A DNA stretch of 64,000 nucleotides from Flaccisagitta enflata (lineage: Eukaryota): contig OZ231126.1 of assembly GCA_965153355.1 (NCBI GenBank), positions 29,822,001-29,886,000 of the forward strand, in the 5' to 3' direction. Shown here piece after piece: positions 13,599 to 42,347 of this stretch (the first letter of the stretch is position 1; every line of letters starts with the position of its first letter). The notes beneath the pieces are model-generated. The model made no database searches and was not told where the DNA came from. It was given only the letters and a program-made list of their open reading frames with translations. The position numbers and the translations under genes are program-made.

Positions 13599-16500
13599 AT
13601 GGTATTGCAGTTTTGTGCACGTGCCTTTTTAAATCATCTCTCAGATTCTGGTATTTGCAAGCTGCTGATTTTGGGTTTGCGCATTTTTAAACTGACATGG
13701 CGTGCGTTGTCGGAACGAAAAAAAATCGAGTGACATGTATGTTCTTGAGTGTGTGGGTCGGTCTCTCTCTCTCTCTCTCTCTGTCTCTCTCTCTCTCTCT
13801 CTCTCTCTCTCTCTCTGTCTCTCTCTCTCTCTCTCTCTCTCTCTCTCTCTCTCTCTCTCTCTCTCTCTCTCTCTCTCTCTCTCTCTCTCTCTCTCTCTCT
13901 CTCTCTCTCTCTCTCTCTCTCTCTCTCTCTCTCTCTCTCTCTCTCTCTCTCTCTCTCTCTCTCTCTCTCTCTCTCTTTGTCTGTCTGTCTGTCTGTCTGT
14001 CTGTCTGTCTGTCTGTCTGTCTCTCTCTCTCTCTCTCTGTCTGTCTGTCTGTCTCTCTCTCTCTCTCTCTCTCTCTCTCTCTCTCTCTCTCTCTCTCTCT
14101 CTCTCTCTCTCTCTCTCTCTCTCTTTCTCTCTCTCTCCAAAGGGGCCGATGACCTATGCTTTCACACAGGAGAAATTTCTCCTTCTCCTCCTCCTCCGTA
14201 CCCCCCCCCCCGCTTTCAGCCTTGAGACCCAAATTCCAGCCTGGAGGCCTAAATCTTAGCCTCAAAACCCAAATCTAAGCCTCGAGGCCCAAATCCAAGC
14301 CTTGAGGCCCAAATCCCAGCCTTGAGGCCCAAGTCTTAACCTCGAGGCCCAAATCTCAGCCTCATCTCCCAAATCTCAGCCTCGGGGCCCAAATCCCAGC
14401 CTCAAAGCCCAAATCCAAGTCTCAAGGCCCAAATCCCAGCTTCAATGCCCAAATCCCAGCCTCAAGGCCCAAATCCCAGCCTTGAGGCTCAAATCCCAAT
14501 CTTGAGGCTCAAATCTCAGTCTCGAGGTTCAAATCTCAGCCATGAGGCTCAAATCCCGCCTTTGAGCTCAATCGCTTCAAGGCCCCATTCCAGCCTCCAG
14601 GCTCAAATAAAAACAGCATAGGTCATCACCCTTCGGGGCCGCTGCCCAATCTCACCATCACACCCTCATACTTCTCTCTTCACTTCTCTCTCTCGGGTCT
14701 CTCTCTCTTTCTCTCTCTTTCTCTCTCTCTCTCTCTCTCTCTCTCTCTCTCTCTCTCTCTCTCTCTCTCTCTCTCTCTCTCTCTCTCTCTCTCTCTCTCT
14801 CTCTCTCTCTCTCTCTCTCTCTCTCTCTCTCTCTCTCTCTCTCTCTCTCTCTCTCTCTCTCTCTCTCTCTCTCTCTCTCTCTTTGTCTCTCTCTCTCTCT
14901 CTCTCTTTGTCTCTCTCTCTCTCTCTCTCTCTCTTTGTCTCTCTATTTTCACTGACCATTTCATTATACATTACCAGGATTTCTCGTGATGGCCGCCATA
15001 TGGACGCGACTTCCACAAATTCAATATCAATTATCAGTGATGGCCCCTTGCCGCAACGAATCGCACCCACGCAATGAAACCACCGACTTAATCAAAGAAC
15101 ACAGGTACATGAGCTCATATCTAGCAGCGGTTTCAACATTTTGATGGCTGCAAGAAGTTTCTCGAAGTTACTCAAAGTTTCTCTCCGCAACAAACGACTG
15201 TCATTGTTCTATGTTGATTTTGTCTTCCGCTGTCATTGTCAATTACACGTGTTGTTCAATTATTGAGAAAGAAAAAAAACAAAGTTATCCTATAACGAGG
15301 CCGAATACACGGCCATCAGTTGCGGACGGGTGGGCAGGGGCGGATATGCGCGTTTTCCCACTCTTCGACTCGTGCTTACGGACGGACGGACGGACGGAAA
15401 AAGCATCTTATAGAGTTGCGTGTCCGCAACTAAAAACCATATCTGAGTAGCCCACCATGTCTAGTATGCTTTTCACAACTCAAATTGCTGTGTTGCTTTC
15501 TCATTGATTGTGGGACAGTTGATTTAACCTCAAATTTTTCTGTTATTTGTCGTTCTTCAGGTGCGACATTTCCATGAATAACGTTTGTGAGCCATCCTGT
15601 CTTAACGGCGGCACCTGTCACAATTTGACGTGTAATTGCGCGCATTCTTACACCGGTAAGACGTCAGATGTGCTCTTGTGGACTTAATACTACTTAGTAA
15701 CTTAGTCATAGTTTGTAGAAAAAACAGGAAAATGTACGACAGTTACCACAAAACTATTAAAACTACTAAAACTATCTAAAATGAGAACCTTTGGAGCACA
15801 AAATGGTGTCATTTATATGTACATATAGCCCCCTCAAAAAATATTTAGTATTATTTTCTAATTCAAATATTGCTTCTTAAGACAAAAGGCTTAAGACTGT
15901 TCAAAAACACATTTCCAACGCTCAAATTTGGTTTTGTGTGCATATGCATTGGAAGCTGTTGTTTTACAGAAACAGGTGACTTTTGATTTTGGTTAGTTTT
16001 TTTCTTTTTTTCACACTTCTAAAATTTATGGTTAGTTTAATTACTACAAAATGTTGCACAACTCATATATAACGCATGTTCACCTATGTGTGGTTGATAC
16101 GGTACTGATATTTTATCTTTCACCTTCAAGGCAAAAGATGCGAACGCTACGAATTTGAAAAAGTTCCTTTATGGTCAGCCATGATGAGCCAACCACTTAT
16201 TATGGGTAAGTCAATGAAGAATGCGGCAGTGAAAGGAAACAAAAGAAAGAAAGAAAGAAAGAAAGGAAAAAAAGAAAGGATGAAAGAAAGAAGAAAAAAA
16301 GAAAGAAAAAAAGAAAGAAGAAAAGAAAGAAGAAAAAAAGAGAGAGAAAAAAAGAAAAAAAAAGAAAAAAAAAGGAAAATAGAAAGAGGAAAAGATAGAA
16401 AAAAAAGACTGAAAAAACACCCTGTCATCAAGGAAAAAAAGAAAGCGATAAAAAAAAGAAGATTAGATTAAGAAAATTCCCAATTATTAAGGAAACAAAT

Positions 16501-42347: not shown

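Follow-up and report, generated by a model that had tools for sequence, protein, structure and literature searches.

The window analysed here is a stretch of 64,000 nucleotides from the chaetognath Flaccisagitta enflata (assembly GCA_965153355.1, contig OZ231126.1, positions 29,822,001 to 29,886,000 of the forward strand), and positions are counted within it unless a genome locus is named. Its plus strand contains a predicted gene of 14 exons (E1 to E14, 13599-42347), which, rebuilt from the raw sequence, forms one frame of 6,039 nt with no internal stops and encodes 2,012 amino acids; all 13 introns are of the GT-AG type. The product, here called the EGF-TM protein, is predicted to carry one EGF module, a single transmembrane (TM) helix and a very long disordered tail, and we tentatively regard it as an adhesion or co-receptor protein.

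The ectodomain and the membrane anchor map to the first five exons. E1 (13599-13650) is an uncertain candidate, with a donor score of 0.5 and a codon score of -2.3 bits, and its alternatives are an exon at 13697-13736 and a start at Met22 (14989), with a leader added to E2 by trans-splicing. Support for it as the first coding exon is weak, and a divergent neighbour gene has its start codon only 117 bases away. E2 (14978-15104) encodes the ectodomain stalk with Cys42 and two sequons, and E3 (15561-15655) contains Cys61 and EGF Cys1 to Cys5, ending in phase 1 within the Gly codon ahead of KRC. E4 (16131-16205) includes EGF Cys6 preceded by Arg94, an 18-residue stalk and the TM start, and E5 (16778-16921) encodes the TM helix and a basic juxtamembrane stretch with Cys133, Cys147 and Cys150.

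The remaining exons encode the tail. E6 (20232-20466), the first one purely of tail, E7 (21269-21405) and the Asn/His-rich E8 (23073-23486) contain no in-frame Met. They are followed by E9 (25653-26878, 408 codons), with Ala, Gly, Gln and Arg runs and five R[RK]x[ST] sites, E10 (28409-29278, 290 codons) and the short, charged E11 (36562-36695), whose read-through hits a stop 2-3 codons past the donor. An in-frame ATG is found one base past the acceptor of E12 (39017-39465), E13 (39749-40877) contains eight copies of a 21-nt unit encoding TPPHNAL-like heptads, and the last exon, E14 (41396-42347), is Thr- and Asp-rich and ends with the stop codon at 42345-42347.

Coding potential was evaluated with 2,000 order-2 Markov simulations per exon, counting those in which any plus-strand frame stayed open. 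The long tail exons are open well beyond chance (0 simulations for E9, E13 and E14, 6 for E10, 76 for E12 and 149 for E8), while the short exons E6 (1,495), E7 (1,449) and E11 (540) are singly not significant. Codon periodicity was modelled on 3,358 codons taken from open reading frames (ORFs) elsewhere in the genome, and this model ranked the annotated frame first of six in 12 of the 14 exons. Splice sites were scored with an approximate generic matrix drawn from general knowledge, in windows set around the model and hence partly circular; within 150 nt, all 13 model donors and 10 of the 13 model acceptors ranked first, and for E6 and E9 the better-scoring acceptors are in the same phase. Splicing from a second, phase-0 donor in E5 (after 16839) to E10 or E11 is possible and would shorten the tail. 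The sequence-only reading had described nine phase-compatible tail exons of low complexity; one open frame and GT-AG introns agree with the former, and low complexity fits only parts of the tail.

In the genome (794 Mb, 9 contigs), no second copy of E2, E5, E10, E13 or E14 was found, apart from short simple-repeat-like stretches in E14, indicating that these exons are not pieces of a mobile element. No paralogues of E3, E5 or E10 were detected. E13 gave 90 genome matches, which were Pro-rich and compositional and were rejected as paralogues.

Predicted ectodomain, membrane topology and tail

The ectodomain comprises 113 residues with three sequons (N44, N50 and N81), six EGF cysteines (69, 73, 79, 84, 86 and 95) and three spare cysteines (6, 42 and 61). 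The EGF cysteines are spaced 3-5-4-1-8 (C-x3-C-x5-C-x4-C-x-C-x8-C). Only one hydrophobic helix stands out, with a Kyte-Doolittle 19-residue mean of 2.82 at residues 114-132; the runner-up (1.63) is a poly-Ala run. These values bear out the sequence-only reading of a short glycosylatable ectodomain with one EGF and one TM helix. Residues 134-165 contain nine Lys or Arg and two Glu, a strong positive-inside flank that points to a predicted topology with the N-terminus outside and the C-terminus inside.

No signal peptide is evident in the gene model, where the best N-terminal 19-residue mean is 1.01, and neither E1 nor its alternatives contain a convincing one. The most hydrophobic in-phase candidates for a signal-peptide exon (for example, the ATG at 15211) were rejected for weak donors or a charged continuation. 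EGF-TM proteins without a signal sequence exist, such as SISS-1 and the neuregulins (PMC11686035).

The short loops place the module among matrix and adhesion EGFs. The Atlas neighbours of E3 are EGF clusters of the Crumbs, teneurin, fibropellin and VWDE type (0.83-0.84), which are leads only, since all scores are below 0.9. A Pfam scan of E3, which does not include Cys6, gave EGF families below the cut-off (E 0.02-0.25), and three matches in a PDB sequence search were not significant (E 0.34-0.74). Within the genome, the 3-5-4-1-8 spacing recurs at two loci (L003 and L005), in EGF modules followed by a calcium-binding-type start, and a 4-5-4-1-8 variant was found in the tandem EGF repeats of a third (L002). 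Another exon with a single short-loop EGF (4-5-4-1-8) is present at L007:1309-1635.

The phase-1 intron between Cys5 and Cys6 is also found in two multi-EGF loci (L032 and L036), and this shared position is one reason to consider a remnant of a Notch-, Crumbs- or Delta-like receptor, in which the last EGF, the TM helix and a PDZ-type end were kept, further ectodomain exons might lie upstream, and the protein would be a co-factor of the Notch pathway or of cell polarity. Weak leads to a Notch1 EGF (PDB, E 0.52) and the Crumbs EGF in the Atlas agree with such an origin, as do the missing signal peptide and Cys61, which is followed by Asp and may once have closed a repeat now lost. Nevertheless, a regex scan of the 73 kb upstream yielded no credible EGF exon on the plus strand, and a gene on the opposite strand begins 117 bases upstream. 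There is one EGF only, where Notch ligands and EGF-repeat proteins have a DSL domain or tandem EGFs; neither a DSL nor another domain was found, and the tail showed no similarity. We consider this origin highly improbable.

Past residue 135 the tail extends for 1,877 residues, among which Ser, Arg, Asp, Ala, Asn, Gly and Pro abound; FoldIndex is below 0 in 75% of its 51-residue windows, so that the disordered tail of about 1,880 residues read from the sequence is confirmed in length and in this disorder check. PKA-type sites (R[RK]x[ST]) occur 16 times against 3.6 expected from 60-residue local shuffles, none of 500 of which reached 16. The enrichment is common to E6-E11 (10 against 2.3 expected) and E12-E14 (6 against 1.3), and Ser or Thr is found at +2 in 16 of 44 R[RK] pairs (binomial p 0.0009). 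No such excess was found in the neighbour gene (3 against 3.9 expected), in the mobile element of intron 10 or in the loop of a G-protein-coupled receptor (GPCR) in the window. Four of the tail sites are RR[GD]S sequences in the E13 repeat, beside the eight heptads with their Thr-Pro sites. The tail ends in IEYV, a hydrophobic tetrapeptide which we take to resemble PDZ ligands and which may bind such domains. Pfam matches of tail exons (TFIIA, DBR1, New_glue, DUF4687 and SLC52) were all below the cut-off and compositional.

Exon linkage, split-gene alternatives and neighbouring elements

Linkage across the 14 exons is predicted from the genome sequence. The first in-frame Met after E5 is residue 443, in E9; E6, E7 and E8 keep the frame open and agree in phase, yet they lack an in-frame Met and therefore need an upstream start. 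Intron 5 contains six ATG..GT phase-1 candidates for such a first exon (donor score above 0), with codon scores of at most 0.7 bits, and these candidates carry no coding signal. A junction between E5 and E6 is, in our judgement, likely.

The only database relatives were four unnamed ENA proteins (P0001-P0004, P0001 with 98% identity), which are near-identical, unspliced readings of E5; among 1.84 billion representatives E5 had a single match, an unspliced allele. All four ENA proteins continue up to 57-58 residues beyond the E5 donor, and an AATAAA is present at 17615, which would fit a short form that ends by read-through, with a tail of about 60 residues here and about 90 in insertion-free alleles, the later exons belonging to another gene. 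A tail of this size matches ordinary pro-EGF-type precursors, which also speaks for a short form. On the other side, each of the ENA proteins begins at the first Met inside E5 and hence represents a short contig (514-1,051 bases) read without splicing, the read-through extension is A-rich with a coding score of -9.5 bits, and in this allele a polymorphic insertion replaces it. In addition, the score of the 16921 donor exceeds that of 99.6% of the GT sites nearby, and E6 to E8 would be left with no start. Termination after E5 is thus quite unlikely. The insertion (16932-17238) is a young, high-copy interspersed element of about 307 bp that lies 11 bases behind the E5 donor. It had 1,630 candidate copies in the genome, 40 of which were scored, the best being 93-97% identical, and it is absent from all four ENA alleles. 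These alleles also encode Cys at residue 155, where the window has Tyr, enlarging the juxtamembrane cysteine cluster.

A second way to divide the locus lies between E11 and E12, giving an EGF-TM protein with a tail of about 1,040 residues (E1-E11) and a soluble disordered protein of 843 residues (E12-E14) that receives a spliced leader. The ATG just behind the strong E12 acceptor could be the start of such a separate trans-spliced gene, although an ATG in this position at one of 13 acceptors is unremarkable by chance. Read-through of E11 reaches its stop within three codons, and AATAAA or ATTAAA hexamers are found at 37540, 38044, 38497 and 38526, but such hexamers are expected in AT-rich DNA. 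The chaetognath SL2 leader (PMC2481426) gave 190 matches in tandem arrays in the genome, against none for the reversed control, and in another chaetognath nearly half of the genes are trans-spliced and 18% are in operons (PMC12460157). By analogy, trans-splicing in the phylum keeps the split-gene reading alive, and as a first exon may begin with an acceptor, splice signals alone cannot prove a shared transcript. However, the gap of 2.3 kb is far above the <250 bp that defines operons in the same source, the E11 donor and the E12 acceptor are in the same phase, and the PKA-type enrichment continues across the proposed boundary. Two genes are an unlikely arrangement on this evidence, and we lean, without great confidence, towards the whole 14-exon chain being one gene. 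A search for RNA listed four marine metatranscriptome runs of one study, with small shares (0.06-0.13) that repeats in the query could explain and that constitute no evidence, and one raw-read run.

The SL2 leader arrays were located on G000 C4-C7 (L023-L025), with a period of about 0.85-1.4 kb. Intron 10 contains a mobile element on the minus strand (31843-35152, approximate limits) with antisense ORFs at 31843-32184 and 32609-35152, which is outside the protein. It matched 15 other places in the genome with 86-97% identity over 32400-33400, and had no Pfam match; a nested host gene was rejected because the sequence is found at 16 places in the genome.

The divergent neighbour gene (6135-13481, minus strand) has four ORFs that together encode 2,079 residues of low complexity. 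It shows repeated SGQ(V/L)SP motifs, a block rich in Gly and Lys and an end rich in Pro, Tyr and Trp, and had no Pfam match above the cut-off. Long low-complexity coding stretches are thus not special to the EGF-TM gene, and a property of the genome may account for part of its tail length. Elsewhere in the window, rhodopsin-type GPCR exons (56432-58374, minus strand, weak Pfam 7TM matches) contain an extended charged insert that is probably cytoplasmic loop 3, and a DUF7041-like ORF (4017-4874, minus strand; E 2e-5, below the cut-off) is preceded upstream, at L052, by a pol-like ORF of 1,232 residues; together these two ORFs are probably a retrotransposon. Two loci at 40-60 kb upstream of the window (L056 and L057) contain a transposase-like ORF, and exons that presumably resemble gamma-adaptin and a CoREST-type SANT protein. 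At G000:C5:83.85-84.16 Mb (L048-L051), Pro-rich stop-free frames of up to 4,255 codons represent a repeat array or a giant repetitive protein.

The EGFR and neuregulin ligand question

The sequence-only reading had also proposed a divergent EGFR or neuregulin-type ligand, while observing that its cysteine spacing was tighter than in EGFR ligands. The latter was correct: the published ligand spacing is CX7CX4-5CX10-13CXCX8C (PMC8943033), and here the first loop has 3 residues in place of 7 and the B-loop 4 in place of 10-13. Counting Cys61 as the first cysteine and passing over Cys79 yields 7-3-10-1-8, which is still outside the consensus and contradicts the CLNGGxC core. ErbB ligands have an intron between Cys4 and Cys5 and an EGF near the TM helix (PMC1618406); the intron is described as near-invariant in EGF ligands (PMC11686035), and some fly ligands are without it (PMC1618406). 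In the EGF-TM gene the intron lies between Cys5 and Cys6. The neuregulin type carries an Ig domain (Ig I-set before the EGF; PMC4914847), whereas only 60 residues precede E3 in the gene model, too few to hold one. The neuregulin cytoplasmic domain PF02158 matched none of the ten exon translations E5 to E14, even with E values up to 1 allowed; none was found genome-wide, but that search is uninformative, as its control was equally silent.

Two ligand features are present: there are 18 residues from Cys6 to the TM start, and Arg94 precedes Cys6, as in published ligands (PMC1618406). Phe100 is located five residues after Cys6, and Ser72, which is not aromatic, precedes Cys2. In EGF itself, a hydrophobic residue (Leu47) is found five after Cys6, an aromatic one (Tyr13) precedes Cys2, and the B-loop contacts the receptor.

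An EGFR-like gene with an L-domain-like exon and several cysteine-rich and TM exons was found at L026/L027 (G000:C7:43.34-43.35 Mb). A canonical ligand-exon pattern gave 14 matches in the genome, with three short ones at L031, L033 and L038, against 24 in the control, and none of the 14 was a single EGF with an in-frame TM helix. The pattern covered one phase and exact matches, with the TM helix sought in the same exon alone; it is narrow, and canonical ligands may well exist in this genome.

By the published definition, the protein as predicted is no EGFR ligand, and its spacing and intron position make a ligand-like function less probable. A TM helix, one EGF and a GxRC end are insufficient for such a call. 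A non-canonical ligand or modulator, with an EGF that is shed or acts by contact and a tail that, like that of neuregulins, sends a signal back to the presenting cell, would draw on the distance to the membrane, Arg94, Phe100 at the position of EGF Leu47, and the EGFR-like gene. It would also fit the lack of a signal peptide, shared with neuregulins and SISS-1 (PMC11686035), the absence of a single-EGF TM exon among the 14 pattern matches, and the high variability of Spiralian EGF-type candidates (PMC4914847). Against it stand both loop lengths, the Cys5-Cys6 intron, the lack of an Ig domain and of a PF02158 match, and the non-aromatic residue before Cys2, making such a function very unlikely. 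An elaborated version, in which chaetognaths derived an EGFR ligand or modulator from an EGF of the adhesion type, its B-loop reduced to a minimum, and fused it to a kinase-regulated tail of about 1,880 residues, signalling forward through EGFR and backward through the scaffold, with alternative donors and trans-splicing tuning tail length, is speculative and extremely improbable. To our knowledge, no ligand tail is as long as this one.

Preferred explanation and known systems

Protein searches with E6 and E12 found no relatives, and their pattern matches in JGI metagenomes (596 and 536, respectively) included none that was confirmed. No relatives of E10 were found among proteins of 509-2,000 residues, a range that excludes the 2,012-residue protein itself, and E5 had no usable match in the Atlas. 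As the searches were single-exon and length-limited, and chaetognaths are thinly covered, the orphan status is weakly shown. A literature search on single-EGF proteins with a long disordered tail returned nothing; no such gene was apparent from the titles or abstract beginnings of the chaetognath-EGF papers listed, one of which concerns a fibropellin-like adhesive protein (10.1101/2025.01.31.635879).

Our preferred explanation, a tentative one that we consider quite possible, is an orphan protein that acts in adhesion or as a co-receptor, joins an EGF and a TM helix to a scaffold tail regulated by phosphorylation, and is encoded by one chaetognath gene. The adhesion receptor proposed in the sequence-only reading is therefore plausible, with some support from the positive-inside flank, the PKA-type enrichment in both halves of the tail and the PDZ-like end. 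In the proposed mechanism, which we find likely provided that the full chain is one gene, the TM helix would act as a signal anchor with no cleaved peptide, placing a small glycosylated ectodomain with one matrix/adhesion-type EGF outside the cell. The EGF would have its partner in the matrix or on an adjacent cell, or the protein would pair through its spare cysteines, and the juxtamembrane cysteines may be lipidated. The disordered tail would be a docking platform, on which PKA-type and proline-directed kinases could act at the enriched sites, switching adaptor binding, while PDZ scaffolds of junctions or synapses might anchor the protein by its C-terminal IEYV.

Several observations weigh against this explanation. 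The 14-exon chain is a model built from genome sequence and not a transcript, and phase agreement at any single junction has a one-in-three chance. Codon-periodicity scores are at or below 0 for E1, E2, E4, E5, E6 and E11, and this score is not independent of stop avoidance. The E8 acceptor scores poorly and is surpassed by sites in another phase, and the E12 donor is weak too. Surface display is predicted for a protein with no signal peptide, the EGF binding partner is hypothetical, and no relatives showing conservation were found in the single-exon searches (E5, E6, E10 and E12). In the tail, the [ST]P excess disappears without E13 (17 against 12.8 expected, reached in 62 of 500 shuffles), and [ST]P enrichment is equal in the neighbour gene. 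Outside E13, Ser or Thr at +3 nearly matches +2 (10 against 11), so the preference is modest, and Tyr docking motifs show no excess (YxxPhi 4 against 7.5 expected, YxN 3 against 3.5).

By itself the EGF-TM protein opens no new mechanism. If the explanation is true, it takes a well-known layout to an extreme, with a single EGF outside the cell and close to 1,900 disordered residues in the tail. It would then be a candidate for organising junctions or synapses in arrow worms, and a test case for the length that signalling tails can reach. The chaetognath body plan has been credited to lineage-specific and novel genes (PMC12460157).

Among known systems, the EGF-type ErbB precursors (TGF-alpha, epiregulin, Spitz/Keren and LIN-3) are alike in having one EGF near one TM helix, a Tyr-x-Gly-x-Arg-Cys end and a short ectodomain, but their spacing is 7-(4-5)-(10-13)-1-8, their intron lies between Cys4 and Cys5, and their tails are many-fold shorter than the modelled one. 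The neuregulin type (NRG1/2, Vein and C. elegans SISS-1) shares the EGF beside the TM helix, the lack of a classical signal sequence and, in NRG1, a long tail, which amounts to a few hundred residues; here, in contrast, there is no Ig domain and no PF02158, and loop lengths and intron position differ. The matrix and adhesion EGFs of VWDE, teneurin, Crumbs and fibropellin are alike in cysteine spacing and in the CLNGGxC core, and the N-terminal EGFs of fibrillin and those of EGFL7/8 are further short-loop modules. These proteins hold many EGFs or other domains, whereas a single module stands on the TM helix here. SCARF/MEGF10/PEAR1, neurexin, syndecan, Jagged, LAT and PAG have a small or EGF-containing ectodomain, a disordered phospho-tail, juxtamembrane cysteines and a hydrophobic C-terminus, as in the predicted protein, which differs in its basophilic Ser/Thr sites in place of Tyr motifs and for which no sequence similarity was found. 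LAT/PAG-type adaptors, in particular, have a tiny ectodomain and many Tyr motifs, in contrast to the 113 residues and unenriched Tyr motifs found here. An EGF, a TM helix and a disordered phospho-tail are a known design; the tail length here is extreme, several times longer than any we know of in single-pass receptors of this kind.

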